A DNA stretch of 64,000 nt. Origin: Eledone cirrhosa. Its lineage: Eukaryota. Positions 30,195 to 59,519 of this stretch are shown piece after piece. The notes beneath the pieces were generated by a model. That model saw only the letters and a list, made by a program, of their open reading frames with translations. It was not told the DNA's origin and made no database searches. Position 1 is the first letter of the stretch; every line of letters starts with the position of its first letter. The position numbers were made by a program, and so were the translations under genes. The stretch spans positions 26,412,001 to 26,476,000 of the forward strand of contig OZ024752.1 in assembly GCA_964016885.1 (NCBI GenBank), written 5' to 3'.

Positions 30195-30427
30195 ATTAAT
30201 CTAGCTGTCGTCTGTTCTACAGTGTGTATGTCATTCACTTCGCACAGAAGTTTTGTTCAAATTTATTGAGGAAATTTTGTGAGTTCAAACTTAATTTTGA
30301 TACAATTGTGTAGCTTGACCCTCCGTCTGAACTGTCAGGCGGTGGGTCAGCTCATCTTTACCCCTCCTAGAGGTGAAAAACCTGTTTTAAAAATGTTTGT
30401 GTAAAAAATTTCAATCGTCTAACAGAA

Positions 30428-32326: not shown

Positions 32327-32359
32327 GTCTCTACACTCTCCTTTGGCTCTGCCGCCCAC

Positions 32360-35300
32360 ATGGATGTGTTAAGAGTAGGATGTTTGAATGCACGTGGCCT
32401 GGGCTCAACATGGAAGCAAGCAAAGCTTCTAAATGACCTCAGGTCATGTAGTATAAATGTAATGGTTATCTGTGAGACTCGAATCAGCGTCGTGCGGCAG
32501 CTGGCCCCCACCTTCGATGACTTTGAGGTGCATGCATCTCTCTGTCAACCTGGAGGTGGGGGTGGGGTTGTCGTACTGCTGCAAAAACACCTGGGTCTTG
32601 CCATACAGGTTGTGCACTCGGACCCGGAGGGTCGTTTGTTGGTGCTAGACGTTGGCAGTAGTGAAAGTGCGGCCTTGAAACTGGTCGCCGTCTACTCCCC
32701 TTTCGGAGCTGAACGGTCCGACTTCTTCCAGCGTTTAGAGACTTTTCTGGGAACGTCGCGTTCCCTGCTTCTAGCGGGGGATTGGAATGACATCCTGGAT
32801 GCACGTTGGGACTATGCAGGAGCATGTCCTAATAGAGGGGGGTGTAACAGCCTCAAGGGGTTACTCGACCGTTTTAACTTGGTCGATAGATATCGACTAG
32901 ATTTTCCAACTGTGCCTACCTGGACTTGGAGAAACCACAGTGGTCAATCTAGATCGTACTTAGATAGATTCTTAGTTAGAAGTAAGGATAGGGACATATT
33001 AAGCTGTCCAGAAATGCGCACGGTTGGCTACACGGATCACAAATTAGTGACCTGCGTGGTCAATCTCGAGAAAACACATAGACAGGGTCCCGGTTACTGG
33101 AAACTTAATTTGTCTTTACCGGCAAAAGAGACTTACAGAAACCGGATTAGCAGATTAGTTAAGGAGAGGTTGACGGGTGCAATCGTCAACAACCGATGGT
33201 GGGAATCTCTCAAAAGAGAGATTAGAACAGAATCAATAAGTTATAGCAAGATGTTAGCTGCCGATAGGAATAGAAACGAGAAAGAATTAACAGGTAAATT
33301 AGAAGAGGCAATCAAGAGCGAATATGTGGCCAGAGTGCTGGCATCGAGGACGGCCTTGAACCAGTTTTTCGATGCAAAGCACGAAGGCTGCGTCATTCGA
33401 AGTAAAATACGTGCTCTAGGTAATGAGGGGGCCAAAGCCGTTGGATGGGCCCGCGTGACAGAAGCTAAGAGTGGAAATCGATCCACCATCCGGTCGTTGC
33501 AAGACGAAGATGGACGGGTGATCCGGGAGCCTAAGCAGATGTGCGAGGCCTTTCAAAGGCACTTTGCCCGATTGTTCGGGGGAGGCGAGGGTCCGGGCGG
33601 GGGCGTGGATTTCGGTCCATACCTCGACGGCCTGCCGCGTCTCTCGAGCGAAGAGGCAGAGTCCTGCGAGGGACCAATCTCGGCTGATGAGATCGGAGAT
33701 GCGCTGAGCCAATGCAGCAGACGCAAATCTCCAGGTCTCGATGGTATACCTTATGAACTTTATTTAGCAATGCCGATCTTCTTCTCCGAACTCCTCGAAG
33801 CGGTCTACTGCAATTGGCAGCAGAACGGGGCAATTCCTTGTTCTGTAGCCAAGGGCGTAGTCACGCTGGTGAGGAAGGACGAGAACAAGGGGGATAGTAT
33901 AAATAATTTTCGGCCCATAACCCTGCTAAACACAGAGTTAAAGATTTTGGCCAAGGTGTTAGCAAAGAGGTTGGCGCTTGTCGTGGGTGGCCTGGTGGGA
34001 GATGCGCAGACATGTGCTATCCCATCCAGGTCCATTCACGATAACCTCCACCTCATGCGATACATCATAGAGAGGGTTGGCAACGTACCCGGCTTTGGTG
34101 GGGCCCTGATCAACTTGGATCAGTCTAAGGCCTTCGATAGGGTCGACCATGGTTACCTGGATGCGGTGCTAGCGGCGGCTGGGTTCGGTCCTGTTTTCAG
34201 AGGCTGGATCACTGCCCTACATAGCAACCACATCTGTTCTAGGATCAAGGTGAACGGCTACCTTTCGAAGCCGTTCGAAATCACACGATCCATTCGACAG
34301 GGGTGCCCTCTCTCCTCCCTTCTGTACGTATTGACTCTCGAGCCTTTACTGAGGAAGTTGGAGTTGTTGCAGGGTATCCCCCTGGAACCAGGATTGAGCA
34401 AAGCGGTGTCGGCCTACACCGATGACGTAACAGTAATGGTATCAACCGACTCGGAGATCGAGGCGATCGGTACCTTACTGGAGGAGTACGAAAGGTTGTC
34501 AGGAGCGAAACTGAACCGGGAAAAATCCATCGGGCTGCAACTCGGAACGTGGAGAGGCAGACCGATGCCTCCTGACGGTGTCGTCGGACACTGGACGGAG
34601 GGCCCGGTAAAGTTGCTTGGGGTCTGGTTTGGACCGGACCTCCAGGTGGAAAAGAACTGGAACGAGGTTACGAACAAGGTGTTTGCACTAACCCAGAAAT
34701 GGGCCAAGTGTAAGCTGTCCCTAAAAGGCCGGGCGGAGGTGGCGAACATTTACATAGCGTCCGTCACTTACTACCGCCTGACTGTCGTGCCTTGCCCTAA
34801 GGAAACACTCACCACCATGGAACGCATGCTCTTCCAATTTCTTTGGAAGAAGCGTCCTCCTATGGTGAGAAGATCCATCTGCTGCCAACAACCTTCGAAA
34901 GGAGGGCTGGGGATGCCGTGGTTGATGATGCGTAGGCACGCATTAAGGCTACGGCACCTACAGGTATTCCTCACTGGTCAACCGGTGTGGGCTCCGTTCG
35001 TGGAACGAGCCTTTCCGAGACTCGTCTCGCTCACCGAGCTACAGTCCTGGGTCAAGCAAAGATCCGGAAAACTGGGAGACTGGCACACTGAGTGTGCTCA
35101 GGCGCTCAGGGCTCTCTGGCAAGCGGGCCAGGCCATCGGTGGAGAATCCACCTCATCATTCTATAGAGGGCTGGTGGCTAGCAGGGGCGATGACATCCTT
35201 GGAGAGTCGCTGGACATGGAAGAAGACGAACTGGCCAGCCTGTTCGGTAGGACTTTCGGCCCAGGACCAATGGACAACTTCCAGAAGTCACTGGCCTGGC

Positions 35301-35797
35301 AGTGCTACCGGGGGGCTCTACCCGTTCGAGAGAGGCTCTACAGACACGAGCGCCCGGGCAGGGATCCCTCAAAAAAGATTTGCCCTAGATGCGTGCGTCA
35401 CGAAGAAACCGTTGCGCACGCATTGGTGCAATGTCCGGGCGTGGCTGATCTGTGGGGCTACGCCGAACAACTGCAGTCGCGGGTGGCGCCGATTAAATTG
35501 ACCGCCGAGTCCGTGATGACAATCAAACCGCCTCCCCTCTTCACAAAGGAAGCAAAGGCGGTTTTTCTGTGCGTAATAGCCATGTTGAAAGAGGTTGTTT
35601 GGTGGACACGATTGAAAGGTCTGAGGTCAGGCAACTTCCTCTCTGGCCATAGTCTGGTCTACTTCTTCCGATATCACTTCGGAAGAAGGATAAGAATGGA
35701 GAGAGAGGTGCTTGGCCACAGGCAGTTTTATGAAAGGTGGGTGATAGTGGCGAGAATGGCTCGTGTAAATGGGCCTTATCTGTATACCATCCTGTAG
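32360..35797 (+). CDS. Tx1 ORF2: APE endonuclease, reverse transcriptase and C-terminal zinc finger (1145 aa)
   Basis: LNARGL, ICET, GDWN, YLDRF, TDH; SPGLDG, QGCPLS, YTDD; CPRC..ETVAHALVQC. Confidence 0.95.
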   Translation: MDVLRVGCLNARGLGSTWKQAKLLNDLRSCSINVMVICETRISVVRQLAPTFDDFEVHASLCQPGGGGGVVVLLQKHLGLAIQVVHSDPEGRLLVLDVGSSESAALKLVAVYSPFGAERSDFFQRLETFLGTSRSLLLAGDWNDILDARWDYAGACPNRGGCNSLKGLLDRFNLVDRYRLDFPTVPTWTWRNHSGQSRSYLDRFLVRSKDRDILSCPEMRTVGYTDHKLVTCVVNLEKTHRQGPGYWKLNLSLPAKETYRNRISRLVKERLTGAIVNNRWWESLKREIRTESISYSKMLAADRNRNEKELTGKLEEAIKSEYVARVLASRTALNQFFDAKHEGCVIRSKIRALGNEGAKAVGWARVTEAKSGNRSTIRSLQDEDGRVIREPKQMCEAFQRHFARLFGGGEGPGGGVDFGPYLDGLPRLSSEEAESCEGPISADEIGDALSQCSRRKSPGLDGIPYELYLAMPIFFSELLEAVYCNWQQNGAIPCSVAKGVVTLVRKDENKGDSINNFRPITLLNTELKILAKVLAKRLALVVGGLVGDAQTCAIPSRSIHDNLHLMRYIIERVGNVPGFGGALINLDQSKAFDRVDHGYLDAVLAAAGFGPVFRGWITALHSNHICSRIKVNGYLSKPFEITRSIRQGCPLSSLLYVLTLEPLLRKLELLQGIPLEPGLSKAVSAYTDDVTVMVSTDSEIEAIGTLLEEYERLSGAKLNREKSIGLQLGTWRGRPMPPDGVVGHWTEGPVKLLGVWFGPDLQVEKNWNEVTNKVFALTQKWAKCKLSLKGRAEVANIYIASVTYYRLTVVPCPKETLTTMERMLFQFLWKKRPPMVRRSICCQQPSKGGLGMPWLMMRRHALRLRHLQVFLTGQPVWAPFVERAFPRLVSLTELQSWVKQRSGKLGDWHTECAQALRALWQAGQAIGGESTSSFYRGLVASRGDDILGESLDMEEDELASLFGRTFGPGPMDNFQKSLAWQCYRGALPVRERLYRHERPGRDPSKKICPRCVRHEETVAHALVQCPGVADLWGYAEQLQSRVAPIKLTAESVMTIKPPPLFTKEAKAVFLCVIAMLKEVVWWTRLKGLRSGNFLSGHSLVYFFRYHFGRRIRMEREVLGHRQFYERWVIVARMARVNGPYLYTIL

Positions 35798-36152
35798 GTA
35801 AAGAAGTAAAGGAGAGGGGAGCACCTTCTCCATGTGCTCCCCGGGCAAAGGATTGCACACTTTTTCGGGGGTGTGTGCAACCCCCATCACGTCCCCTCCC
35901 TTTTGAGGTTATTTTCGATTATTTTCATGTTACACCCTTTTTACTCGATTATATGTAAACTCCCCCTTTGTATTTGTCCCTTCTTTTTATGCCTTTATGG
36001 TAAATAAAGAAATCTATCTATCTATCTATCTATTTGTCCACCCGTTCGACCTTCTGTCTGTCCGCCTCTGTTTCGCTCTCTTCCGCCCCCCCCTCTCTCT
36101 CTCTATATATATATATATATACATAAATATATATATATAAATATATAAATAT

Positions 36153-36938: not shown

Positions 36939-37009
36939 AAAAGAGAGAGAATTAATTTCACAGAGTGCTCTACCATCTTTGGATATAACCTTCTGACTTT
37001 TCACTGCAG

Positions 37010-37051
<42 letters not shown>

Positions 37052-37118
37052 GAGTGTGTCCCCAGTTCGGCCATCCATTCCTCTTTATATGTGTCTCTCT
37101 CACTCCCCCGTCTCTCTA

Positions 37119-37165
<47 letters not shown>

Positions 37166-37166
<1 letters not shown>

Positions 37167-40600: not shown

Positions 40601-41338
40601 ATTGATTATTAAAAAACTGCTGTTAATGTCGCCATTGAAGCCATTCTTAGCTACGGCTGTTGTTGTTGTTGTTGTTCCTGTTATAGCTGATAAGCTTGTT
40701 TTGTTGATATTACCAACCTATTTGTGTATCATACCATTATTGCTCGTTTATTATTGCTGAATTTGTTGTAGTTGTTGTCATTGTTGTTGCTAATCTTGTG
40801 CTTATGTGTATTGATGTTTGTGTCGTTGTTGTTGTTGTTGTTGATGGTGTTGGTGGTGGTGATGGTGGTGGTGGTTGTGCTGGTGGTGATGGTGGTAGTG
40901 GTCCTGTTGGTTTTGTTTTGCCATTGCTGTTATTGTTGTTTTTGTTGCCATCGTCGTTGTCGTTATTGTTGTCGTTGTTGTTGTTTATTGTTGCAGTTGT
41001 TGATATTGCTGTATCGTTATCGTTTTAGTAATTTTGTTTGTGTTTTTACTTGCTGTTACCATTATTGCTGTTGTTTATATAGTCATTATTAATATTAATA
41101 ATGTTATTATTATTATTATTATTATTATTGACGAAAGTGGATGTACGTTTTTTGAAGCTCCGTGAGTAAGCAATTTTTGAGGATTAATTGTAGAGAATTG
41201 TTTATTTTTTGTACCGCTGAAGCATTATAAGACATTAATTTGTATCCTGTGAAGGAATAACTCATAATATTTGGGCCTTTTGGCCCAAATATTTGAACTT
41301 TATTTTGAAAAAAATAATAATTTTTTTCTCAAAAAAAC

Positions 41339-43249
41339 ATGGCGGAGCCACGCCCCCTAGAGGCGGGTCTGCTGTCGTGCAACGGCGACTTGAGCGTTGA
41401 GAGGAGAGGTGAGGCGAGGAGCGCCACCAGCACGAATGTGAGCAGCGACAGTGCCAGCACCAACGGGCCGAGCGGCGCGGAAGGTGGTAACAGCGACAAC
41501 ACCAACACCAACAAGCCGAACAGCGCAGAAGGTGGTAATAGCGAGAGCACCAACAAAACGAACAGCACAGAGAGTAATAGTAGCGACAGCAGCAGCACCA
41601 ACAAGGCCAACAGCACAGAAGGTAACCACGACACAGGGGAGAACAACAACAGCAATAGCAGCAGCAACACCAACAAGAACAACAACAGTGACAACACCAA
41701 CAAGAACACTTTCGCTGCTGTGGCAGCGGCTAAAAGGAGACCATGCTACAGCATCGACTTAACCAACAGAGAGGAAAAGTTGGCCCAGGCCTGGAAAATC
41801 ATAAATCAAGAGCAGACCTGGGCAAACTTAACTGTCCCGGCAGAAGCCATTGAGGCAGTGGAAAAAAGAACGGTGCATTTCAGATGCATCTCAGTAGAGA
41901 CAAAGAGGGCAGCGATAATCGCCCAAGCTGACATAGAAGCCGCACTGAAATACATCAGAGAGGACACAGACTTCATAGAGAGGGGCAGGCAATACGGCAC
42001 CGTTTCGGTGCTGTTCAAGTCTGAAGCCCTCGCTGTGAAGCATTCAATGACCCCTTGCAAAACCAGCAAGGTCATAATGTACCCCTCCCACATGGGAAAA
42101 CGAATAGCACGTGTGCGCATTCCCAGGATTCCACCAGGACTTGATATGTGGTGGCTCCTGGGTTGCGTAATCGTGGAAGGAACGGATACAGTCCCGGTAG
42201 AGGCAACGAGAACTGCCAGGGACGACTGGTCCGGGGTTGATCTGGAGATACTGCTCCAAATCAGACCCGAAAACGTAAAAACAATCCCGGACCACATCCG
42301 CCTCCAAAACGGGAGGGTGTTGCATATAATGACTGAGGGCAAAAGGCCGCATTGTTTCCTTTGTGGGGAAACGACACACTTGCGAGCCTTCTGCCCTCAA
42401 CTGCCGAAAAGCGCAAGGGGTCGAAAGATTCCACTGCTGGCGACGCCGGGACAAGGACCACCAGCAACACCGTCAACAATGGAACCACCAAAATTGCACA
42501 CCCAGGGGGGAAACGAGGAAAGCTCTCCCATTCCCCCTCCCCCCCAAAATACACACACGAACAAGAACATAAACACTCACTCAGACACAAACACGCTCAC
42601 AGCCACAGACCCCTCATCCTCCAGCAGTGAAGATGAGGGAAAACCAAAGTCCCCCAAAATACAAAAAACAAAACACAAAAAAAAAAGAAATCCACAAAGC
42701 ACAAACACCCCCACAAAAAAAAATACACACACCACCCACACAAACATTTTCCCCACAGCATCACCAACACAACCACCAAAATCCCCCAAACGCAAACAAG
42801 CTAAACAGACACAAGAACAAATAGACACACAAACATCAGAAACTACAGACACCCCACCCACAACAAACGCAGACACAATAGAAACAACACTAACAAAGCT
42901 ATCACCACCACAATCACACGAACAAATAAAACCCGAGCAACAAAACATTAAAAACTTCGTGCTTGCCAGAAGGGCCAACAAGGAATTGATGGCCCATGTA
43001 GCACGAAGCACAAACATCGAAAAAGACGGGGAAACATTTGAAGCGAGCACATTTCGCGTACCAGATAATTTGCTTCTGATGCGAATGTCGCTCGCTTCAT
43101 ACAAAGAAATTCGAAAGAGCTTTCCTCGGGATGTGGGAACCCCGAACGTAAAACCCACGTCAAGACTATTAAAGGGGTTCCCAAAAGAAACCCCACAAAC
43201 CATGGAGGTCGAACCACCCGACCTTCACAAGACCCCGGAAGGTAAGTAA
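41339..43249 (+). CDS. Tx1 ORF1 (636 aa; low-complexity N-terminus, CCHC zinc knuckle)
   Basis: TFAAVAA motif and CFLCGETTHLRAFC; homologous to lineage C ORF1. Confidence 0.93.
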   Translation: MAEPRPLEAGLLSCNGDLSVERRGEARSATSTNVSSDSASTNGPSGAEGGNSDNTNTNKPNSAEGGNSESTNKTNSTESNSSDSSSTNKANSTEGNHDTGENNNSNSSSNTNKNNNSDNTNKNTFAAVAAAKRRPCYSIDLTNREEKLAQAWKIINQEQTWANLTVPAEAIEAVEKRTVHFRCISVETKRAAIIAQADIEAALKYIREDTDFIERGRQYGTVSVLFKSEALAVKHSMTPCKTSKVIMYPSHMGKRIARVRIPRIPPGLDMWWLLGCVIVEGTDTVPVEATRTARDDWSGVDLEILLQIRPENVKTIPDHIRLQNGRVLHIMTEGKRPHCFLCGETTHLRAFCPQLPKSARGRKIPLLATPGQGPPATPSTMEPPKLHTQGGNEESSPIPPPPQNTHTNKNINTHSDTNTLTATDPSSSSSEDEGKPKSPKIQKTKHKKKRNPQSTNTPTKKNTHTTHTNIFPTASPTQPPKSPKRKQAKQTQEQIDTQTSETTDTPPTTNADTIETTLTKLSPPQSHEQIKPEQQNIKNFVLARRANKELMAHVARSTNIEKDGETFEASTFRVPDNLLLMRMSLASYKEIRKSFPRDVGTPNVKPTSRLLKGFPKETPQTMEVEPPDLHKTPEGK

Positions 43250-43278
43250 ACCTTTCCTCTCCCATTCATCCTGCCAGC

Positions 43279-46200
43279 ATGGCCATAAGAGTAGGAAGTT
43301 TAAATGTTCGTGGCCTGGGGTCGCCCTGGAAGCAAGGTCACTTGCTCAACGACCTCAGGTCACTAGGAATGGATGTAATTGCCATCAGCGAGACCAGAAT
43401 TTCCGACACACGCGCACTGGCGCCGATTTTCGACGATTATCAGATCTTTGCATCTGTTAGTCGGCCGGGAATGGGAGGTGGAGTGGCTGTGCTGTTTAGG
43501 AAATGTCTGGATCTCGAGGTAAGGTCAATCTTCCGGGATCCTGACGGAAAGTTGGTGGTCCTGGACGTGAGCAATAGCGAAGGTGGTGCCTTTAGACTGG
43601 TGGCCGTCTACGCCCCTACTGGGGCCGGTCGGCCGGACTTCTTTAGGCGCCTGGAAAACTTTCTGCTTACGTCTCGCCCTTTACTGTTAATAGGGGATTG
43701 GAATGGCATCTTAGAAGCACGCTGGGATTGTGTGGGAGTATCTGATAGGAGCGGGGGGTGCAAAAGCCTCAAGTACCTGATCAGCCAGTTTCAACTGTCT
43801 GACAGGTACCGACTAGATTTCCCTAATGCGCCAGTATGGACCTGGACCAATCGCATAGGGTCATCTAGATCGTACATAGATAGGATTTTCATTAGGAAAA
43901 GAGATAGAAATAGTGTAGGATGTCCACATTTTAAAACGGTTGCCTATTCAGATCACAAGCTTGTGATCTGTATGGTCGACCTAGATAAGACACGTAGGTT
44001 AGGACCTAGCTACTGGAAGCTAAACATGTCGTTTCCGGCACGTAAAGCTTACAGGGACCGGGTCAACAACTTAGTTAAGCAAAAGTTGACAGGGGGGGTT
44101 GTCAACAACAGGTGGTGGGGGGCACTCAAAAGAGAGATTAGAGCAACCTCGATAGGATTTAGCAAAGAAGTAGCAATAGAGAAAAATAGAAAAGAGGAGG
44201 GGCTGATAGCTAAGTTAGACGAGGCTATTTGTAGTGGCATTGCAACAGACGTGCTAGCGGCGAGAATGGCACTAGACCATTTCTTCAATGCGAAACACGA
44301 AGGTTGCATTGTCAGAGCTAAGGCGCGTGCTCTGAGGAACGAGGGAACCAAAGCTGCCCGATGGGCTCGCTTTGCAGAGACGCAGCGTGGAAATAAAACC
44401 ACAATTCGGTCTTTGACGGATCGAGATGGACACGAACTGAGCGATTCCAAGCAGATGTGTGAGGCCTTTCGCCAGCACTTTGCTCGATTGTTCGGGAGGA
44501 TGGGTGAGTCGGAGATGGCGGCGGACTTCAGTCCCTACCTCGACGGCTTGCCACGCCTCTCGACGGCCGACGCTGAGCGCTGCGAAGAGCCGATAACATC
44601 AGCCGAAATTCAGGACGCCCTTGTCGGCTGCTCGAGTCGCAAGTCACCCGGTTTGGATGGTCTGCCCTACGAGCTTTACGTAAATATGCCAGACTTGTTC
44701 TCCGATCTCCTCGAAGCGCTCTACTGCAACTGGCAGCAGAACGGGAGCATTCCCAGTTCTGTGAGCCGTGGCGTAGTGACGCTGATAAGGAAAGACGAGA
44801 ACAAGAGGGACACACTAGATAATTTCAGGCCCATAACCCTGCTCAACACAGAGTTTAAGATTTTGGCCAAGGTGTTAGCGAAAAGGTTGGCGCTTGTCGT
44901 CAAAGATTTGGTTGGGGAGGCGCAAACTTGCGCAATCCCGACCAGGTCCATACACGACAACCTCCACCTCATGCGATACATCATAGAGAGGGTTGGGTGC
45001 AAACCTGGCTTCGGTGGGGCTCTGATCAATTTAGATCAATCGAAAGCATTCGATAGGGTCGACCATCGGTACTTGGAGGCTGTCCTCGAGGCGGCTGGCT
45101 TCGGCCCCGTCTTCAGAAGCTGGATCGCTGCAATGTACAGCGGCATCCGCTCGGTGGTCAAAGTTAATGGCCACCTCTCGGAACCGTTTCAGATCTCTCG
45201 ATCGGTCCGTCAAGGGTGCCCTCTCTCCTCACTTCTGTACGTATTGACTCTTGAGCCTCTACTGCGGAAGCTGGAGTTGTTGCAGGGCATCCCGCTCGAA
45301 CCGGGACGTAGAAAGGCTGCGTCCGCTTATGCAGACGACATCACCGTGATGGTGTCGGACACCTCGGAAATCGAGGTGATCCGCACCCATTTGGAGGAAT
45401 ATGAAAGGTTGACGGGAGCAAAACTTAACCCGGAAAAGTCGGTGGGCTTGCAGCTCGGCACCTGGAGAGGCAAGTCCATGCCGTCCAACAGCGTCGTTGG
45501 GCGCTGGACAGACGGACCGGTAAAGTTGCTCGGGGTTTGGTTCGGACCAGACCTCCAGGTGGATAAGAATTGGGACGAGGTGACGAGCAGGATAGCCAAC
45601 CTCACCCAGAAATGGGCTGAGAGAAAGCTATCACTGAAAGGGCGGGCGGAGGTGGCGAACGCGTACATCGCGTCCGTCATCTACTACCGCCTGACCGTCG
45701 TGCCTTGCCCCCGTCCACGCCTCGCCAATTTGGAACGGCTCCTTTTCAAATTTTTGTGGAGGGGACGGGTCCCGTTGGTGAGGCGGTCCATCTGCTGCCA
45801 GCACCCTCTTCGTGGAGGGCTGGGCATGCCGTGGCTAATGATGCGCAGACATGCGCTGAGGCTGCGACATCTCCAGATATTTTGCCTAAACGGTGAACAG
45901 GTGTGGTCGCCGTTTGTTAGACGGGCCTTTCCGCAGCTCATCTCTTTGACTGAGCTGCAGTCCTGGGTCAAGAAGAGACCGAGACTGGGCGACTGGCATC
46001 TGGAATGTTGCCAGGCGCTCACTGCACTCTGCAAGGTGGGCAATGCGGTCAGTGGAACTTCCACTCAAGATTTCTATAGAGGATTAGTGGAGGGCAAGTG
46101 CGATGACGTACTAGGAGAGGCTCTGGGCGTCAACGAAGTAGAACTGACCAGTATGTTCCGGAGGACTTTCGAGCCGGGGACGATGGATAACTTCCAGAAA

Positions 46201-46698
46201 TCCCTCGCTTGGCAGTGCTACCGAGGGGCGCTGCCGGTTCGGGATAAACTCTACAGGCACGGAAGTGCTGTCAGACGAACCTGCCCGAGATGCGCGCAGA
46301 GCGACGAAACCGTTCTGCACGCACTCGTCCAGTGTCCGTGCATTGCTGACTTGTGGGGTTATGTCGAACAGCTATTGTCGCGTGTAGAACGGATCCGGCT
46401 ATCGTCCGAGTCCATAGTGAAGATTGACCCGCCGCCTTCTTTTGGTCAGGAAGGGCAGGCAATTTTCCTCTGCCTGGTGGCAGTAGCGAAAGAGGTTGCA
46501 TGGTGGACCAGGTTGAAAGGACTGAAGACAGACACTTTTCTCTTCGGCCAATCCCTCATCAACTTCTTCAAGTTTCACTTGGAAAGGAAGGTGAGGGTGG
46601 AGAGAGAAGTGCTGCCCCCCAGTACATTTACTGAAAGGTGGGTGAATGTGGCGAGAATGGCCCGCGTGAGTGGGCCTACTCTGATCATGCGCCTGTAG
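43279..46698 (+). CDS. Tx1 ORF2 (1139 aa; APE endonuclease, RT with YADD, zinc finger)
   Basis: LNVRGL, ISET, GDWN, YIDR, SDH; QGCPLS, YADD; CPRC..ETVLHALVQC. Confidence 0.97.
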   Translation: MAIRVGSLNVRGLGSPWKQGHLLNDLRSLGMDVIAISETRISDTRALAPIFDDYQIFASVSRPGMGGGVAVLFRKCLDLEVRSIFRDPDGKLVVLDVSNSEGGAFRLVAVYAPTGAGRPDFFRRLENFLLTSRPLLLIGDWNGILEARWDCVGVSDRSGGCKSLKYLISQFQLSDRYRLDFPNAPVWTWTNRIGSSRSYIDRIFIRKRDRNSVGCPHFKTVAYSDHKLVICMVDLDKTRRLGPSYWKLNMSFPARKAYRDRVNNLVKQKLTGGVVNNRWWGALKREIRATSIGFSKEVAIEKNRKEEGLIAKLDEAICSGIATDVLAARMALDHFFNAKHEGCIVRAKARALRNEGTKAARWARFAETQRGNKTTIRSLTDRDGHELSDSKQMCEAFRQHFARLFGRMGESEMAADFSPYLDGLPRLSTADAERCEEPITSAEIQDALVGCSSRKSPGLDGLPYELYVNMPDLFSDLLEALYCNWQQNGSIPSSVSRGVVTLIRKDENKRDTLDNFRPITLLNTEFKILAKVLAKRLALVVKDLVGEAQTCAIPTRSIHDNLHLMRYIIERVGCKPGFGGALINLDQSKAFDRVDHRYLEAVLEAAGFGPVFRSWIAAMYSGIRSVVKVNGHLSEPFQISRSVRQGCPLSSLLYVLTLEPLLRKLELLQGIPLEPGRRKAASAYADDITVMVSDTSEIEVIRTHLEEYERLTGAKLNPEKSVGLQLGTWRGKSMPSNSVVGRWTDGPVKLLGVWFGPDLQVDKNWDEVTSRIANLTQKWAERKLSLKGRAEVANAYIASVIYYRLTVVPCPRPRLANLERLLFKFLWRGRVPLVRRSICCQHPLRGGLGMPWLMMRRHALRLRHLQIFCLNGEQVWSPFVRRAFPQLISLTELQSWVKKRPRLGDWHLECCQALTALCKVGNAVSGTSTQDFYRGLVEGKCDDVLGEALGVNEVELTSMFRRTFEPGTMDNFQKSLAWQCYRGALPVRDKLYRHGSAVRRTCPRCAQSDETVLHALVQCPCIADLWGYVEQLLSRVERIRLSSESIVKIDPPPSFGQEGQAIFLCLVAVAKEVAWWTRLKGLKTDTFLFGQSLINFFKFHLERKVRVEREVLPPSTFTERWVNVARMARVSGPTLIMRL

Positions 46699-47185
46699 GC
46701 TGGTGAATTCGAGAAGGAGAGGGGTGCCCTTCCCGGGTGCCCTAGGAGCGTCGGGTGGCTCAGGACTGGTGGGGTGCTTGAGTCAACCCTGGGTGGTGAT
46801 CCCTCTTATTGGGGAACTTTCATTGTTGTATTTTTATTGTTATTTTGTTTTTCTTGTTATTTATACTTACTCGATCTCTATGTAAACCCCCACTGTCCCT
46901 GTCTATTGTGTTGTCCCCTATATGTCGGCCCTTGTGGCCAATAAATGAAATCATTATTATTATTATTATTATTATTGACGAAAGTGGATGTACGTTTTTT
47001 GAAGCTCCGTGAGTAAGCAATTTTTGAGGATTAATTGTAGAGAATTGTTTATTTTTTGTACCGCTGAAGCATTATAAGACATTAATTTGTATCCTGTGAA
47101 GGAATAACTCATAATATTTGGGCCTTTTGGCCCAAATATTTGAACTTTATTTTGAAAAAAATAATAATTTTTTTCTCAAAAAAAC

Positions 47186-49096
47186 ATGGCGGAGCCACGC
47201 CCCCTAGAGGCGGGTCTGCTGTCGTGCAACGGCGACTTGAGCGTTGAGAGGAGAGGTGAGGCGAGGAGCGCCACCAGCACGAATGTGAGCAGCGACAGTG
47301 CCAGCACCAACGGGCCGAGCGGCGCGGAAGGTGGTAACAGCGACAACACCAACACCAACAAGCCGAACAGCGCAGAAGGTGGTAATAGCGAGAGCACCAA
47401 CAAAACGAACAGCACAGAGAGTAATAGTAGCGACAGCAGCAGCACCAACAAGGCCAACAGCACAGAAGGTAACCACGACACAGGGGAGAACAACAACAGC
47501 AATAGCAGCAGCAACACCAACAAGAACAACAACAGTGACAACACCAACAAGAACACTTTCGCTGCTGTGGCAGCGGCTAAAAGGAGACCATGCTACAGCA
47601 TCGACTTAACCAACAGAGAGGAAAAGTTGGCCCAGGCCTGGAAAATCATAAATCAAGAGCAGACCTGGGCAAACTTAACTGTCCCGGCAGAAGCCATTGA
47701 GGCAGTGGAAAAAAGAACGGTGCATTTCAGATGCATCTCAGTAGAGACAAAGAGGGCAGCGATAATCGCCCAAGCTGACATAGAAGCCGCACTGAAATAC
47801 ATCAGAGAGGACACAGACTTCATAGAGAGGGGCAGGCAATACGGCACCGTTTCGGTGCTGTTCAAGTCTGAAGCCCTCGCTGTGAAGCATTCAATGACCC
47901 CTTGCAAAACCAGCAAGGTCATAATGTACCCCTCCCACATGGGAAAACGAATAGCACGTGTGCGCATTCCCAGGATTCCACCAGGACTTGATATGTGGTG
48001 GCTCCTGGGTTGCGTAATCGTGGAAGGAACGGATACAGTCCCGGTAGAGGCAACGAGAACTGCCAGGGACGACTGGTCCGGGGTTGATCTGGAGATACTG
48101 CTCCAAATCAGACCCGAAAACGTAAAAACAATCCCGGACCACATCCGCCTCCAAAACGGGAGGGTGTTGCATATAATGACTGAGGGCAAAAGGCCGCATT
48201 GTTTCCTTTGTGGGGAAACGACACACTTGCGAGCCTTCTGCCCTCAACTGCCGAAAAGCGCAAGGGGTCGAAAGATTCCACTGCTGGCGACGCCGGGACA
48301 AGGACCACCAGCAACACCGTCAACAATGGAACCACCAAAATTGCACACCCAGGGGGGAAACGAGGAAAGCTCTCCCATTCCCCCTCCCCCCCAAAATACA
48401 CACACGAACAAGAACATAAACACTCACTCAGACACAAACACGCTCACAGCCACAGACCCCTCATCCTCCAGCAGTGAAGATGAGGGAAAACCAAAGTCCC
48501 CCAAAATACAAAAAACAAAACACAAAAAAAAAAGAAATCCACAAAGCACAAACACCCCCACAAAAAAAAATACACACACCACCCACACAAACATTTTCCC
48601 CACAGCATCACCAACACAACCACCAAAATCCCCCAAACGCAAACAAGCTAAACAGACACAAGAACAAATAGACACACAAACATCAGAAACTACAGACACC
48701 CCACCCACAACAAACGCAGACACAATAGAAACAACACTAACAAAGCTATCACCACCACAATCACACGAACAAATAAAACCCGAGCAACAAAACATTAAAA
48801 ACTTCGTGCTTGCCAGAAGGGCCAACAAGGAATTGATGGCCCATGTAGCACGAAGCACAAACATCGAAAAAGACGGGGAAACATTTGAAGCGAGCACATT
48901 TCGCGTACCAGATAATTTGCTTCTGATGCGAATGTCGCTCGCTTCATACAAAGAAATTCGAAAGAGCTTTCCTCGGGATGTGGGAACCCCGAACGTAAAA
49001 CCCACGTCAAGACTATTAAAGGGGTTCCCAAAAGAAACCCCACAAACCATGGAGGTCGAACCACCCGACCTTCACAAGACCCCGGAAGGTAAGTAA
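47186..49096 (+). CDS. Tx1 ORF1 (copy 2)
   Basis: Same protein as 41339..43249. Confidence 0.93.
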   Translation: MAEPRPLEAGLLSCNGDLSVERRGEARSATSTNVSSDSASTNGPSGAEGGNSDNTNTNKPNSAEGGNSESTNKTNSTESNSSDSSSTNKANSTEGNHDTGENNNSNSSSNTNKNNNSDNTNKNTFAAVAAAKRRPCYSIDLTNREEKLAQAWKIINQEQTWANLTVPAEAIEAVEKRTVHFRCISVETKRAAIIAQADIEAALKYIREDTDFIERGRQYGTVSVLFKSEALAVKHSMTPCKTSKVIMYPSHMGKRIARVRIPRIPPGLDMWWLLGCVIVEGTDTVPVEATRTARDDWSGVDLEILLQIRPENVKTIPDHIRLQNGRVLHIMTEGKRPHCFLCGETTHLRAFCPQLPKSARGRKIPLLATPGQGPPATPSTMEPPKLHTQGGNEESSPIPPPPQNTHTNKNINTHSDTNTLTATDPSSSSSEDEGKPKSPKIQKTKHKKKRNPQSTNTPTKKNTHTTHTNIFPTASPTQPPKSPKRKQAKQTQEQIDTQTSETTDTPPTTNADTIETTLTKLSPPQSHEQIKPEQQNIKNFVLARRANKELMAHVARSTNIEKDGETFEASTFRVPDNLLLMRMSLASYKEIRKSFPRDVGTPNVKPTSRLLKGFPKETPQTMEVEPPDLHKTPEGK

Positions 49097-49125
49097 ACCT
49101 TTCCTCTCCCATTCATCCTGCCAGC

Positions 49126-52100
49126 ATGGCCATAAGAGTAGGAAGTTTAAATGTTCGTGGCCTGGGGTCGCCCTGGAAGCAAGGTCACTTGCTCAACGAC
49201 CTCAGGTCACTAGGAATGGATGTAATTGCCATCAGCGAGACCAGAATTTCCGACACACGCGCACTGGCGCCGATTTTCGACGATTATCAGATCTTTGCAT
49301 CTGTTAGTCGGCCGGGAATGGGAGGTGGAGTGGCTGTGCTGTTTAGGAAATGTCTGGATCTCGAGGTAAGGTCAATCTTCCGGGATCCTGACGGAAAGTT
49401 GGTGGTCCTGGACGTGAGCAATAGCGAAGGTGGTGCCTTTAGACTGGTGGCCGTCTACGCCCCTACTGGGGCCGGTCGGCCGGACTTCTTTAGGCGCCTG
49501 GAAAACTTTCTGCTTACGTCTCGCCCTTTACTGTTAATAGGGGATTGGAATGGCATCTTAGAAGCACGCTGGGATTGTGTGGGAGTATCTGATAGGAGCG
49601 GGGGGTGCAAAAGCCTCAAGTACCTGATCAGCCAGTTTCAACTGTCTGACAGGTACCGACTAGATTTCCCTAATGCGCCAGTATGGACCTGGACCAATCG
49701 CATAGGGTCATCTAGATCGTACATAGATAGGATTTTCATTAGGAAAAGAGATAGAAATAGTGTAGGATGTCCACATTTTAAAACGGTTGCCTATTCAGAT
49801 CACAAGCTTGTGATCTGTATGGTCGACCTAGATAAGACACGTAGGTTAGGACCTAGCTACTGGAAGCTAAACATGTCGTTTCCGGCACGTAAAGCTTACA
49901 GGGACCGGGTCAACAACTTAGTTAAGCAAAAGTTGACAGGGGGGGTTGTCAACAACAGGTGGTGGGGGGCACTCAAAAGAGAGATTAGAGCAACCTCGAT
50001 AGGATTTAGCAAAGAAGTAGCAATAGAGAAAAATAGAAAAGAGGAGGGGCTGATAGCTAAGTTAGACGAGGCTATTTGTAGTGGCATTGCAACAGACGTG
50101 CTAGCGGCGAGAATGGCACTAGACCATTTCTTCAATGCGAAACACGAAGGTTGCATTGTCAGAGCTAAGGCGCGTGCTCTGAGGAACGAGGGAACCAAAG
50201 CTGCCCGATGGGCTCGCTTTGCAGAGACGCAGCGTGGAAATAAAACCACAATTCGGTCTTTGACGGATCGAGATGGACACGAACTGAGCGATTCCAAGCA
50301 GATGTGTGAGGCCTTTCGCCAGCACTTTGCTCGATTGTTCGGGAGGATGGGTGAGTCGGAGATGGCGGCGGACTTCAGTCCCTACCTCGACGGCTTGCCA
50401 CGCCTCTCGACGGTCGACGCTGAGCGCTGCGAAGAGCCGATAACATCAGCCGAAATTCAGGACGCCCTTGTCGGCTGCTCGAGTCGCAAGTCACCCGGTT
50501 TGGATGGTCTGCCCTACGAGCTTTACGTAAATATGCCAGACTTGTTCTCCGATCTCCTCGAAGCGCTCTACTGCAACTGGCAGCAGAACGGGAGCATTCC
50601 CAGTTCTGTGAGCCGTGGCGTAGTGACGCTGATAAGGAAAGACGAGAACAAGAGGGACACACTAGATAATTTCAGGCCCATAACCCTGCTCAACACAGAG
50701 TTTAAGATTTTGGCCAAGGTGTTAGCGAAAAGGTTGGCGCTTGTCGTCAAAGATTTGGTTGGGGAGGCGCAAACTTGCGCAATCCCGACCAGGTCCATAC
50801 ACGACAACCTCCACCTCATGCGATACATCATAGAGAGGGTTGGGTGCAAACCTGGCTTCGGTGGGGCTCTGATCAATTTAGATCAATCGAAAGCATTCGA
50901 TAGGGTCGACCATCGGTACTTGGAGGCTGTCCTCGAGGCGGCTGGCTTCGGCCCCGTCTTCAGAAGCTGGATCGCTGCAATGTACAGCGGCATCCGCTCG
51001 GTGGTCAAAGTTAATGGCCACCTCTCGGAACCGTTTCAGATCTCTCGATCGGTCCGTCAAGGGTGCCCTCTCTCCTCACTTCTGTACGTATTGACTCTTG
51101 AGCCTCTACTGCGGAAGCTGGAGTTGTTGCAGGGCATCCCGCTCGAACCGGGACGTAGAAAGGCTGCGTCCGCTTATGCAGACGACATCACCGTGATGGT
51201 GTCGGACACCTCGGAAATCGAGGTGATCCGCACCCATTTGGAGGAATATGAAAGGTTGACGGGAGCAAAACTTAACCCGGAAAAGTCGGTGGGCTTGCAG
51301 CTCGGCACCTGGAGAGGCAAGTCCATGCCGTCCAACAGCGTCGTTGGGCGCTGGACAGACGGACCGGTAAAGTTGCTCGGGGTTTGGTTCGGACCAGACC
51401 TCCAGGTGGATAAGAATTGGGACGAGGTGACGAGCAGGATAGCCAACCTCACCCAGAAATGGGCTGAGAGAAAGCTATCACTGAAAGGGCGGGCGGAGGT
51501 GGCGAACGCGTACATCGCGTCCGTCATCTACTACCGCCTGACCGTCGTGCCTTGCCCCCGTCCACGCCTCGCCAATTTGGAACGGCTCCTTTTCAAATTT
51601 TTGTGGAGGGGACGGGTCCCGTTGGTGAGGCGGTCCATCTGCTGCCAGCACCCTCTTCGTGGAGGGCTGGGCATGCCGTGGCTAATGATGCGCAGACATG
51701 CGCTGAGGCTGCGACATCTCCAGATATTTTGCCTAAACGGTGAACAGGTGTGGTCGCCGTTTGTTAGACGGGCCTTTCCGCAGCTCATCTCTTTGACTGA
51801 GCTGCAGTCCTGGGTCAAGAAGAGACCGAGACTGGGCGACTGGCATCTGGAATGTTGCCAGGCGCTCACTGCACTCTGCAAGGTGGGCAATGCGGTCAGT
51901 GGAACTTCCACTCAAGATTTCTATAGAGGATTAGTGGAGGGCAAGTGCGATGACGTACTAGGAGAGGCTCTGGGCGTCAACGAAGTAGAACTGACCAGTA
52001 TGTTCCGGAGGACTTTCCAGCCAGGGACGATGGATAACTTCCAGAAATCCCTCGCTTGGCAGTGCTACCGGGGGGCGCTGCCGGTTCGGGATAAACTCTA

Positions 52101-52545
52101 CAGGCACGGAAGTGCTGTCAGACGAACCTGCCCGAGATGCGCGCAGAGCGACGAAACCGTTCTGCACGCACTCGTCCAGTGTCCGTGCATTGCTGACTTG
52201 TGGGGTTATGTCGAACAGCTATTGTCGCGTGTAGAACGGATCCGGCTATCGTCCGAGTCCATAGTGAAGATTGACCCGCCGCCTTCTTTTGGTCAGGAAG
52301 GGCAGGCAATTTTCCTCTGCCTGGTGGCAGTAGCGAAAGAGGTTGCATGGTGGACCAGGTTGAAAGGACTGAAGACAGACACTTTTCTCTTCGGCCAATC
52401 CCTCATCAACTTCTTCAAGTTTCACTTGGAAAGGAAGGTGAGGGTGGAGAGAGAAGTGCTGCCCCCCAGTACATTTACTGAAAGGTGGGTGAATGTGGCG
52501 AGAATGGCCCGCGTGAGTGGGCCTACTCTGATCATGCGCCTGTAG
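49126..52545 (+). CDS. Tx1 ORF2 (copy 2)
   Basis: Private substitutions STVDAE and TFQPG. Confidence 0.97.
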   Translation: MAIRVGSLNVRGLGSPWKQGHLLNDLRSLGMDVIAISETRISDTRALAPIFDDYQIFASVSRPGMGGGVAVLFRKCLDLEVRSIFRDPDGKLVVLDVSNSEGGAFRLVAVYAPTGAGRPDFFRRLENFLLTSRPLLLIGDWNGILEARWDCVGVSDRSGGCKSLKYLISQFQLSDRYRLDFPNAPVWTWTNRIGSSRSYIDRIFIRKRDRNSVGCPHFKTVAYSDHKLVICMVDLDKTRRLGPSYWKLNMSFPARKAYRDRVNNLVKQKLTGGVVNNRWWGALKREIRATSIGFSKEVAIEKNRKEEGLIAKLDEAICSGIATDVLAARMALDHFFNAKHEGCIVRAKARALRNEGTKAARWARFAETQRGNKTTIRSLTDRDGHELSDSKQMCEAFRQHFARLFGRMGESEMAADFSPYLDGLPRLSTVDAERCEEPITSAEIQDALVGCSSRKSPGLDGLPYELYVNMPDLFSDLLEALYCNWQQNGSIPSSVSRGVVTLIRKDENKRDTLDNFRPITLLNTEFKILAKVLAKRLALVVKDLVGEAQTCAIPTRSIHDNLHLMRYIIERVGCKPGFGGALINLDQSKAFDRVDHRYLEAVLEAAGFGPVFRSWIAAMYSGIRSVVKVNGHLSEPFQISRSVRQGCPLSSLLYVLTLEPLLRKLELLQGIPLEPGRRKAASAYADDITVMVSDTSEIEVIRTHLEEYERLTGAKLNPEKSVGLQLGTWRGKSMPSNSVVGRWTDGPVKLLGVWFGPDLQVDKNWDEVTSRIANLTQKWAERKLSLKGRAEVANAYIASVIYYRLTVVPCPRPRLANLERLLFKFLWRGRVPLVRRSICCQHPLRGGLGMPWLMMRRHALRLRHLQIFCLNGEQVWSPFVRRAFPQLISLTELQSWVKKRPRLGDWHLECCQALTALCKVGNAVSGTSTQDFYRGLVEGKCDDVLGEALGVNEVELTSMFRRTFQPGTMDNFQKSLAWQCYRGALPVRDKLYRHGSAVRRTCPRCAQSDETVLHALVQCPCIADLWGYVEQLLSRVERIRLSSESIVKIDPPPSFGQEGQAIFLCLVAVAKEVAWWTRLKGLKTDTFLFGQSLINFFKFHLERKVRVEREVLPPSTFTERWVNVARMARVSGPTLIMRL

Positions 52546-53030
52546 GCTGGTGAATTCGAGAAGGAGAGGGGTGCCCTTCCCGGGTGCCCTAGGAGCGTCG
52601 GGTGGCTCAGGACTGGTGGGGTGCTTGAGTCAACCCTGGGTGGTGATCCCTCTTATTGGGGAACTTTCATTGTTGTATTTTTATTGTTATTTTGTTTTTT
52701 GTTATTTATACTTACTCGATCTCTATGTAAACCCCCACTGTCCCTGTCTATTGTGTTGTCCCCTATATGTCGGCCCTTGTGGCCAATAAATGAAATCATT
52801 ATTATTATTATTATTATTATTGACGAAAGTGGATGTACGTTTTTTGAAGCTCCGTGAGTAAGCAATTTTTGAGGATTAATTGTAGAGAATTGTTTATTTT
52901 TTGTACCGCTGAAGCATTATAAGACATTAATTTGTATCCTGTGAAGGAATAACTCATAATATTTGGGCCTTTTGGCCCAAATATTTGAACTTTATTTTGA
53001 AAAAAATAATAATTTTTTTCTCAAAAAAAC

Positions 53031-54941
53031 ATGGCGGAGCCACGCCCCCTAGAGGCGGGTCTGCTGTCGTGCAACGGCGACTTGAGCGTTGAGAGGAGAG
53101 GTGAGGCGAGGAGCGCCACCAGCACGAATGTGAGCAGCGACAGTGCCAGCACCAACGGGCCGAGCGGCGCGGAAGGTGGTAACAGCGACAACACCAACAC
53201 CAACAAGCCGAACAGCGCAGAAGGTGGTAATAGCGAGAGCACCAACAAAACGAACAGCACAGAGAGTAATAGTAGCGACAGCAGCAGCACCAACAAGGCC
53301 AACAGCACAGAAGGTAACCACGACACAGGGGAGAACAACAACAGCAATAGCAGCAGCAACACCAACAAGAACAACAACAGTGACAACACCAACAAGAACA
53401 CTTTCGCTGCTGTGGCAGCGGCTAAAAGGAGACCATGCTACAGCATCGACTTAACCAACAGAGAGGAAAAGTTGGCCCAGGCCTGGAAAATCATAAATCA
53501 AGAGCAGACCTGGGCAAACTTAACTGTCCCGGCAGAAGCCATTGAGGCAGTGGAAAAAAGAACGGTGCATTTCAGATGCATCTCAGTAGAGACAAAGAGG
53601 GCAGCGATAATCGCCCAAGCTGACATAGAAGCCGCACTGAAATACATCAGAGAGGACACAGACTTCATAGAGAGGGGCAGGCAATACGGCACCGTTTCGG
53701 TGCTGTTCAAGTCTGAAGCCCTCGCTGTGAAGCATTCAATGACCCCTTGCAAAACCAGCAAGGTCATAATGTACCCCTCCCACATGGGAAAACGAATAGC
53801 ACGTGTGCGCATTCCCAGGATTCCACCAGGACTTGATATGTGGTGGCTCCTGGGTTGCGTAATCGTGGAAGGAACGGATACAGTCCCGGTAGAGGCAACG
53901 AGAACTGCCAGGGACGACTGGTCCGGGGTTGATCTGGAGATACTGCTCCAAATCAGACCCGAAAACGTAAAAACAATCCCGGACCACATCCGCCTCCAAA
54001 ACGGGAGGGTGTTGCATATAATGACTGAGGGCAAAAGGCCGCATTGTTTCCTTTGTGGGGAAACGACACACTTGCGAGCCTTCTGCCCTCAACTGCCGAA
54101 AAGCGCAAGGGGTCGAAAGATTCCACTGCTGGCGACGCCGGGACAAGGACCACCAGCAACACCGTCAACAATGGAACCACCAAAATTGCACACCCAGGGG
54201 GGAAACGAGGAAAGCTCTCCCATTCCCCCTCCCCCCCAAAATACACACACGAACAAGAACATAAACACTCACTCAGACACAAACACGCTCACAGCCACAG
54301 ACCCCTCATCCTCCAGCAGTGAAGATGAGGGAAAACCAAAGTCCCCCAAAATACAAAAAACAAAACACAAAAAAAAAAGAAATCCACAAAGCACAAACAC
54401 CCCCACAAAAAAAAATACACACACCACCCACACAAACATTTTCCCCACAGCATCACCAACACAACCACCAAAATCCCCCAAACGCAAACAAGCTAAACAG
54501 ACACAAGAACAAATAGACACACAAACATCAGAAACTACAGACACCCCACCCACAACAAACGCAGACACAATAGAAACAACACTAACAAAGCTATCACCAC
54601 CACAATCACACGAACAAATAAAACCCGAGCAACAAAACATTAAAAACTTCGTGCTTGCCAGAAGGGCCAACAAGGAATTGATGGCCCATGTAGCACGAAG
54701 CACAAACATCGAAAAAGACGGGGAAACATTTGAAGCGAGCACATTTCGCGTACCAGATAATTTGCTTCTGATGCGAATGTCGCTCGCTTCATACAAAGAA
54801 ATTCGAAAGAGCTTTCCTCGGGATGTGGGAACCCCGAACGTAAAACCCACGTCAAGACTATTAAAGGGGTTCCCAAAAGAAACCCCACAAACCATGGAGG
54901 TCGAACCACCCGACCTTCACAAGACCCCGGAAGGTAAGTAA
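53031..54941 (+). CDS. Tx1 ORF1 (copy 3)
   Basis: Same protein as 41339..43249. Confidence 0.93.
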   Translation: MAEPRPLEAGLLSCNGDLSVERRGEARSATSTNVSSDSASTNGPSGAEGGNSDNTNTNKPNSAEGGNSESTNKTNSTESNSSDSSSTNKANSTEGNHDTGENNNSNSSSNTNKNNNSDNTNKNTFAAVAAAKRRPCYSIDLTNREEKLAQAWKIINQEQTWANLTVPAEAIEAVEKRTVHFRCISVETKRAAIIAQADIEAALKYIREDTDFIERGRQYGTVSVLFKSEALAVKHSMTPCKTSKVIMYPSHMGKRIARVRIPRIPPGLDMWWLLGCVIVEGTDTVPVEATRTARDDWSGVDLEILLQIRPENVKTIPDHIRLQNGRVLHIMTEGKRPHCFLCGETTHLRAFCPQLPKSARGRKIPLLATPGQGPPATPSTMEPPKLHTQGGNEESSPIPPPPQNTHTNKNINTHSDTNTLTATDPSSSSSEDEGKPKSPKIQKTKHKKKRNPQSTNTPTKKNTHTTHTNIFPTASPTQPPKSPKRKQAKQTQEQIDTQTSETTDTPPTTNADTIETTLTKLSPPQSHEQIKPEQQNIKNFVLARRANKELMAHVARSTNIEKDGETFEASTFRVPDNLLLMRMSLASYKEIRKSFPRDVGTPNVKPTSRLLKGFPKETPQTMEVEPPDLHKTPEGK

Positions 54942-54970
54942 ACCTTTCCTCTCCCATTCATCCTGCCAGC

Positions 54971-58390: not shown

Positions 58391-59519
58391 GCTGGTGAAT
58401 TCGAGAAGGAGAGGGGTGCCCTTCCCGGGTGCCCTAGGAGCGTCGGGTGGCTCAGGACTGGTGGGGTGCTTGAGTCAACCCTGGGTGGTGATCCCTCTTA
58501 TTGGGGAACTTTCATTGTTGTATTTTTATTGTTATTTTGTTTTTTTTGTTATTTATACTTACTCGATCTCTATGTAAACCCCCACTGTCCCTGTCTATTG
58601 TGTTGTCCCCTATATGTCGGCCCTTGTGGCCAATAAATGAAATCATTATTATTATTATTATTACTATATTATTATTATTGATGTTGTTGTGGTCGTCATT
58701 GTTGTTGTTGTTGTTGCAGTAGCTGTTGATATTGATGTTTTCTTATCCATTGTTGTTGTTGTTGCTGCCGCTTCTGCCATATTTGTTATTGTTGTTGTTG
58801 TTGTTGTTGCTGCTGCCGTTGTTGTTGTTGTTGTAATTTAGCACTCCCCCTTTATGGTATCTGCCTGTCGTTTCTCTATTCGTTTCATATCAGCAGCATT
58901 AACGCTTCAAAAAACAAAACAAAAAAAAAAAAACTAAAAAACTTTTATGTCTGTTATGGACCATAAAAACCTACAACAATAGATCACAGACATTAACGAA
59001 ATATATAGAAAAAAACCCGGTGTTCAAGAAGAGTAAAATGGCCGCCAGCAGCAACAAAAATGAAAATGGAAGAATCAATAAAGGGCCGTGTATCAAAACT
59101 ATCGTACACACGCATGCGCACAGTGAAAAGGAGAGAAGTAGGAGGTAGAGACAGAGAGAAAGAAAGAATGAGTGAGGGAGAAAGAAACAGATGCACATAT
59201 ATATACATACTGAAAGATATATTGATGCATATGCAGATATATTTAAATAGGGAAGAAGCAGGGAAAATTATCATTGCCATCATCTTCATCATCGCTGTTG
59301 TTCACTTCCTTCTCTTCATCGACATTCACATCGCTCTTCTCTTTTATCACTGACACTCCTCCTACACCATATCCACCCCTTCTCATTAACATCATCATCA
59401 TCATCATCATCAACAACATCATTAGGTTCTATGTTCTTATCTTTACCGTAATTATCTATCAGATACCACACAATACACATACACATGCTCAAAAACCACT
59501 ACCAACACCACGTCAATAC

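Follow-up and report, generated by a model that had tools for sequence, protein, structure and literature searches.

A conserved splice donor at the end of ORF1 suggests a copia-like spliced mRNA in octopod Tx1-type LINEs

Introduction

Can the whole reverse transcriptase gene of a long interspersed nuclear element (LINE) serve as an intron? The question is raised by a 64,000-nucleotide stretch of the Eledone cirrhosa genome (assembly GCA_964016885.1, contig OZ024752.1, positions 26,412,001 to 26,476,000 of the forward strand, which we refer to as the window and to which all coordinates refer), in which three copies of a Tx1-type LINE, here called family D, each carry a strong 5' splice site at the end of the first open reading frame (ORF1), and a stop codon of the second (ORF2) that can also be read as a 3' splice site. 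Judging from comparisons between related families, we consider it probable that an octopod clade of such elements makes a copia-like spliced mRNA with ORF1 alone, by joining the donor to the AG within the stop codon of ORF2, or to an AG a few bases upstream. A wider proposition, that the copia strategy has arisen convergently in an octopod LINE, with the reverse transcriptase gene as a spliceosomal intron, its own stop as the acceptor, most of the ORF1 protein made from the spliced RNA and a single splicing decision setting the activity of thousands of copies in each tissue, seems to us to lie slightly on the likely side.

The usual account of how LINEs obtain more ORF1 than ORF2 protein is that both frames share one RNA and the second is poorly translated. 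If the proposal made here is correct, elements without long terminal repeats (LTRs) would have a new way of expressing their genes, the splicing out of ORF2, convergent with that of copia, and host splicing could act directly on LINE activity in cephalopods, whose neuronal LINE expression is under discussion. Counts of RNA over ORF1 or the 3' untranslated region (UTR) would then overstate the transposition-competent RNA. The clade also offers a case of strong splice sites that a LINE retains through selection and not by accident.

Organisation of family D and its predicted intron

The first copy (41130..46976, plus strand) is a 5847-nt unit with its own ATT tail. ORF1 (41339..43249, plus strand) encodes 636 amino acids (aa) with a single CCHC knuckle and a C-terminal half of low complexity, and is followed by a pyrimidine-rich spacer (43250..43278, plus strand) and by ORF2 (43279..46698, plus strand; 1139 aa), which encodes an APE endonuclease, a reverse transcriptase and a zf-RVT domain, and which lies entirely within the predicted intron. 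The 3' UTR (46699..46952, plus strand), which would form the second exon, has a purine-rich start, a U-rich middle and an AATAAA at 46940-46945.

The donor, AAG|GTAAGT (43239..43247, plus strand), is in phase 1 and would start the intron at 43242. The predicted acceptor (46675..46699, plus strand) consists of a modest pyrimidine tract, a CTGAT motif (46681-46685) whose A lies 14 nt before the last G of the predicted intron, and the ORF2 stop TAG (46696-46698) as the YAG, followed by G at 46699; on the spliced RNA, a TGA at 46704..46706 (plus strand) would then end ORF1. An earlier note made from the sequence of the window had described this arrangement, and its description of the two sites and of the 3457-nt interval is exact: 43242-46698 in the first copy, 49089-52545 in the second (46977..52821, plus strand) and 54934-58390 in the third (52822..58679 with its ATT tail, plus strand) all have this length, start with GTAAGT after AAG and end with CTGTAG before G. 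The copies differ at only 6-14 of ca. 5850 alignment positions (>99.7% identical), and we therefore count them as one observation. The note had also held that splicing leaves the length of ORF1 unchanged, which is true of family D (636 aa in either form, ending PEGK unspliced and PEGW joined) and untrue as a conserved property, the unspliced and joined tails being 9 and 2 aa in family D3, and 12 and 3 aa in F73. Similarly, the CTGAT branch-like motif is present, but it is particular to family D.

Splice sites were scored by matches to the U1-complementary 9-mer for donors, and by a simple ad hoc pyrimidine/YAG score for acceptors. By these measures, the donor at 43242 is the sole site among 292 GT in the element with 8/9 matches, and the stop-AG is outscored by just two of the 261 AGs downstream of the donor. 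A TAG|G is common by itself, with 17 TAGG and 42 YAGG in the element.

Conservation of the donor between families

The same layout occurs in a diverged relative within the window, family FT (30195..36013, plus strand, in (TATC)n; 67% protein identity in ORF2), where the donor AAG|GTAGGT stands at 32323 in phase 2, ORF2 (32360-35797) ends TAG|G, and an in-frame TAA follows directly. Among 30 genomic loci chosen by an ORF2-start motif, 27 carried AG|GTARGT and one GG|GTAAGT, the remaining two being truncated or changed at this point; both ORF2 ends were present in 39 of 42 long loci, and the donor in 36 of these 39, which cluster into 12 groups at 95% and four at 80% nucleotide identity. On a tree of 12 representatives, donor positions -2, -1, +1, +2, +3, +5 and +6 underwent no change and +4 varied between A and G only, while each of the remaining 52 positions within 30 nt (anchored on the donor, not gap-aligned) changed 1-8 times; at fourfold sites in ORF2 of the same representatives, 28 of 133 were invariant. 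Two of the 12, F78 and F79, were later shown to be one family, in which L078, at first taken as evidence of a separate phase-1 family F78, looks like a deletion-bearing copy and the family is phase 2. Family F10, found later, has CAG|GTAATT, still a good donor, and +5 is thus variable in the full set.

The donor lies in phase 1 in D, D2, D3a and F8, in phase 2 in F9, F10, F79, F65, F64, F75 and FT, and in phase 0 in D3 and F73, so neither the protein nor the stop codon accounts for its conservation. On this comparison of sequences, the donor at the ORF1 end is under selection at the nucleotide level. It is very improbable that the two motifs merely come with the stop codons and the coding sequence, kept by chance and common descent: all the families do share an ancestor, and TAG|G alone would fit such an origin, but against it stand seven donor positions that are unchanged in three phases, in families whose ORF1 proteins are only ~30% identical, while every other position within 30 nt has changed.

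Downstream of the donor, positions +9 to +28 of the spacer hold 14-19 pyrimidines out of 20 in 11 of the 12 representatives (the twelfth is 5'-truncated and was not scored). The ORF1 C-termini of relatives (QGK, EGKS in Argonauta hians, or read-through of G-E-Q plus a spacer-like peptide) are compatible with the same donor. In distant metagenome relatives (22 of 47 inspected, with best segments mostly 22-34% identical), no donor was seen by eye at any of 13 ORF1 ends, and TAG closed two of 15 complete ORF2 ends; the combination of donor and ORF2 stop looks limited to the present clade.

The ORF2 stop codon as acceptor and the frame across the junction

In 10 of 11 families, the best AG at the stop or up to 7 nt upstream is outscored by only 0-10 of ca. 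260 AGs, and the mean score of the stop-AG is joint second best among 99 shared AG columns. The use of the ORF2 stop as an acceptor is thereby suggested, not proven.

The frame that results from the predicted junction appears to be the best link between donor and acceptor. When the donor is joined to the stop-AG, ORF1 ends within four residues in 13 of 17 TAG-ending lineages, versus 8 of 34 wrong frames (permutation P 0.003, uncorrected for kinship; F9 and F10, which have no stop-AG, were left out). The near stop is built from varied bases after the acceptor, with TGA or TAA at +6, TAG or TGA at +3, TAA at +7 and G-TRA at +2. In the sister subfamilies D3a and D3, a phase-1 stop at +3 is present in 8 of 9 phase-1 copies versus 1 of 5 phase-0 copies (the 3' end could not be scored at 10 of the 24 loci), four further phase-0 copies, on loci matched by place, also lack it, and the D3 phase-0 copies use a phase-0 stop at +7. 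We read this contrast as a single event, in which the stop decayed where the change of donor phase made it useless. A compensating 1-nt insertion in D3 was considered and dropped, since wider sampling revealed substitutions only. The stop-AG is also the only one of the shared AG columns to rank at the top for both acceptor score and short tails. Among the lineages that miss a short tail, F64, F323 and F10x, like the TAA-ending F9 and F10, would each gain a tail of 2-4 aa from an upstream AG.

Several results weigh against splicing to the ORF2 stop. The earlier note had looked to conservation of both sites across related families, and this holds for the donor, independently of the protein frame, but not for the TAG, which is found in 11 of 12 families and is no better kept than neutral sites (20 of 39 twofold A/G sites show one change or none). 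F9, a young family with copies less than ~1% apart, and F10 retain a strong donor, yet their ORF2 ends in TAA, their nearest AGs are poor (41 of 259 score higher) and a downstream AG would add a 65-aa tail. The residues encoded before the stop partly dictate the pyrimidine run there, and we found no branch site that is independent of coding. The rescue by upstream AGs is post hoc and would give F8b 35 aa; F79, with a phase-2 donor and no upstream AG, has a 28-aa tail. Short tails can also come about by chance, since one of the 99 shared AG columns ties with the stop-AG in this respect (8/10) and two come close; the lineages, moreover, are related, amounting to perhaps 5-7 independent events, with six of them represented by one copy each. 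Finally, spliced genomic copies of family D numbered 0 against 340 unspliced, and exact-pattern searches in D2, D3, F8, F9, F64/F75, FT and F73 (seven other family-level searches) also yielded no spliced copy.

Part of this would be expected if the donor were a binding site for the U1 small nuclear ribonucleoprotein that seldom or never takes part in a splice to the ORF2 stop, and that guards the nascent transcript against premature cleavage and polyadenylation or aids transcription, together with the second donor-like site in the 5' UTR, the TAG|G and the following stops being incidental. The donor is indeed far better conserved than the acceptor, F9 and F10 keep it without a stop-AG, a GTRAG for which no shared partner was identified recurs in the 5' UTR of 11 of 13 families, and family D contains poly(A)-like hexamers at 42925, 42947, 43168 and 44392; in the Arabidopsis element EVD, an excerpt of one report describes U1 as blocking premature termination (PMC5580714). 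Three of these four hexamers precede the donor, however, and a pure U1 site predicts neither stops that follow the donor phase (13/17 vs. 8/34) nor the decay between D3a and D3, and we regard it as unlikely to be the whole explanation.

Less likely still is a donor that works with some other acceptor, be it an AG within ORF2 (e.g. 46078 or 43689), an AG just past the ORF2 start, which would remove a 36-60 nt intron and fuse ORF1 to ORF2, or one downstream of the element. Two internal shared AG columns do equal the stop-AG in acceptor score, but they give short tails in just 4/10 and 0/10 families. For the short intron, the spacer is richer in pyrimidines than the stretch before the stop, and in-frame AGs occur near the ORF2 start in the phase-1 and most phase-2 families; F73 and F79 have no such in-frame AG, however, the AGs involved are codons of a conserved R-V-G motif, and introns of 36-60 nt are very short for animals.

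Two further features were noted around the predicted acceptor. In D2 (L196-L199, L202, L207) a GTAGGT stands right after the ORF2 stop, and as TAG|GTAGGT is itself a good donor, acceptor and donor would lie back to back. Family D has no AG in the last 157 nt before its poly(A) signal (window 46790-46945), and AG-free tails of 39-103 nt are found in five other families.

Searches for spliced copies and spliced RNA

The genomic searches for spliced copies relied on exact-match patterns. Those matches that did occur were three unspliced copies, 17 (14 + 3) point-changed unspliced copies and 13 with the intron start. The predicted junction lies ca. 250 nt from the 3' end, and even short insertions would contain it. 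The suggestion that the spliced RNA might be mobilised as an ORF1-only element thus found no backing in family D or in the seven other family-level searches. L132, the sole one of 60 ORF1-selected loci without an endonuclease match, was examined as a candidate and rejected, because its internal deletion starts after the ORF2 ATG and not at the donor.

Five sequencing runs were also available, all as contigs, which show presence only, and all of unrecorded kind; no spliced junction was seen in them. In one of these runs, X4, two joints were listed at 95% identity, neither at the donor, and contigs matching 43198-43773 and 46635-46940 cross the donor and the acceptor unspliced, which, given the unrecorded kind of the run, counts neither for nor against the splice. 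Real branches also seem to be dropped at this spot, since a depth-37 contig that has the D3-type base at 43197 joins here although its onward branch does not break the contig. Contig depths vary along the element and cannot rank its parts.

Proposed expression strategy

Under the favoured explanation, one promoter would give rise to an unspliced 5.8-kb RNA and to a spliced ORF1-only mRNA of ca. 2.4 kb with both UTRs. The short mRNA would supply the excess of ORF1 protein, whilst the unspliced RNA would encode both proteins, would alone make ORF2 protein, and would be the one copied back. The earlier note had offered either control of ORF1:ORF2 stoichiometry or an off switch. An off switch alone would need no tidy end to ORF1, and the in-frame stop that follows the stop-AG in the donor phase in most lineages favours the first of these, as it points to selection that keeps the end of ORF1 clean in the spliced RNA, and thus to protein supply rather than a mere off switch. 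LINE proteins prefer to act in cis (PMC13756887, excerpt), and if ORF2 protein likewise favours the RNA that encodes it, the intron would be kept in the genome and no spliced copies would result. Binding of U1 to this donor may, in addition, protect the unspliced RNA against early polyadenylation, as in the plant copia element EVD, in which splicing and U1 protection can coexist.

We compared this scheme with published systems, described below from excerpts of the sources cited. In Ty1/copia elements, the structural gene has a conserved U1 site close to its end; splicing there yields a short RNA for the structural protein, and the unspliced RNA serves as template. The intron of Drosophila copia is ca. 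3 kb long, so that the short RNA has the normal 3' end (PMC5580714, PMC8892269). In EVD, U1 both enables the short gag RNA (shGAG) and blocks early termination of the long RNA (PMC5580714). The octopod LINE resembles copia in the U1 site at the end of the structural frame, although splicing is demonstrated in copia and predicted here. It differs in design, since copia is an LTR element with one gag-pol frame in which splicing creates the gag stop, whereas the LINE has two frames, an ORF1 stop already present in the unspliced RNA and a predicted acceptor that is the ORF2 stop.

Among LINEs, human L1 has working splice sites that were kept over evolution (SpORF2, SpIREs); its splices lie within the 5' UTR or remove ORF1 and keep ORF2, the spliced forms retrotranspose and account for ~2% of the insertions that are full-length, and the sites are put down to constraint on promoter or coding sequence, as side effects (PMC2896524, PMC5860796). 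Family D is similarly an L1-group LINE with splice sites, but here it is ORF2 that would be removed, the donor is independent of frame, and no spliced copy was found in our searches. The introns of TART occur in antisense RNA (PMC1636488). HAL1 and the ORF1-only telomeric elements of Drosophila are non-autonomous genomic families with ORF1 and UTRs but no ORF2 (PMC13756887, PMC13534243), whereas the octopod ORF1-only form is predicted as an mRNA only. Kibi, Koshi and crocodilian Tx1 are Tx1-clade LINEs in microsatellites (PMC4494074), an insertion habit they share with family D, and L1-Tx1 families have been recently active in Octopus vulgaris (PMC13282606); the excerpts of these two reports make no mention of splicing. 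In the literature outside Repbase, subscription journals and supplements, we found no paper on a splice that removes ORF2 from a LINE.

Classification and distribution of the family

The ORF2 of family D matches PF03372 (residues 7-226), PF00078 (509-753) and PF13966 (974-1026), and its nearest solved structure is human L1 ORF2p (E 3.5e-57, residues 4-853), against E 4.7e-22 for R2, over the reverse transcriptase only. ORF1 has no Pfam match; its knuckle, C-x2-C-x4-H-x4-C, is invariant in 12 aligned ORF1 pieces and weakly matches retroviral nucleocapsid knuckles. A search of Rfam gave no match. Two frames, an endonuclease, reverse transcriptase and zinc finger as the only domains, and a 3' AATAAA with a repeat tail fit an L1-group, Tx1-type LINE, the Tx1 label being drawn from the APE/reverse transcriptase/Cys-rich ORF2, the CCHC ORF1 and the microsatellite target, not from a reverse transcriptase tree; a single gag-pol frame with protease and integrase, and LTRs, as in Ty1/copia, are absent.

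The 3.0 Gb genome contains 340 exact family D ORF1 ends, 1215 D-clade donors and 3790 matches to the ORF2-start motif. Named homologues are from Argonauta hians, Octopus sinensis, O. bimaculoides and a cuttlefish. A large set of near full-length ORF2 relatives with 38-44% identity (P0155-P0173) comes nearly entirely from ENA assemblies. The search with a single ORF1 sequence found nothing, a profile search of ORF1 did find relatives, and viral contigs yielded no relative.

The first copy follows an (ATT)n microsatellite (41085..41129, plus strand), and 19 of 20 family D 5' ends in the fetched loci stand directly behind (ATT)3. Head-to-tail arrays with short ATT runs between the copies are seen here (three copies, 41085-58679) and on C1 (G000:C1:423365592-423418308), where ca. 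10 copies are spaced at 5.8 kb; repeated insertion into the element's own tail is the likely origin. The target repeat tracks the ORF2 tree, with D, D2, D3, F8, F9 and F10 in (ATT)n, and FT, F73, F75 and F79 in (TATC)n. F75 and F79 have similar 5' UTRs despite ORF2s on different branches, which suggests a 5' end swap.

The 5' UTR of family D carries a second donor-like site, GTGAGT (41162..41167, plus strand). In the 11 families that have a 5' UTR GTRAG (L061-L080, L188-L207, L268-L337), it lies ca. 25-90 nt from the 5' end of otherwise dissimilar 5' UTRs, and it is absent in D3 and F8. Removal of ORF1 as an intron from this donor was rejected, as most families have no AG between the spacer and the ORF2 ATG. 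In F73, a CAG immediately before the ORF1 ATG makes a small 5' UTR intron possible. The same family (L067, L068, L073, L077, L080) has ATA in place of the ORF2 ATG, overlapping the ORF1 stop, and ORF2 is open in L073, which suggests non-AUG or coupled initiation.

Other repeats in the window

Related Tx1-type elements are clustered in (TATC)n at 24184-37340: the full-length FT copy, with an early stop at 31483 that interrupts its ORF1, and 5'-truncated copies with frames at 24492-25766, 26875-27402, 27780-28307 and 28649-29176, another ending near 29892, and a fragment at ca. 37170-37340. Upstream of it, a 3.2-kb C/A-rich tandem array (20830-24015) with periods of 21 and 30 nt has long open frames of low complexity on both strands. 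Lastly, a 303-aa frame on the minus strand (1392-2303) resembles, by eye, a C-terminal fragment of a reverse transcriptase, possibly Penelope-like.

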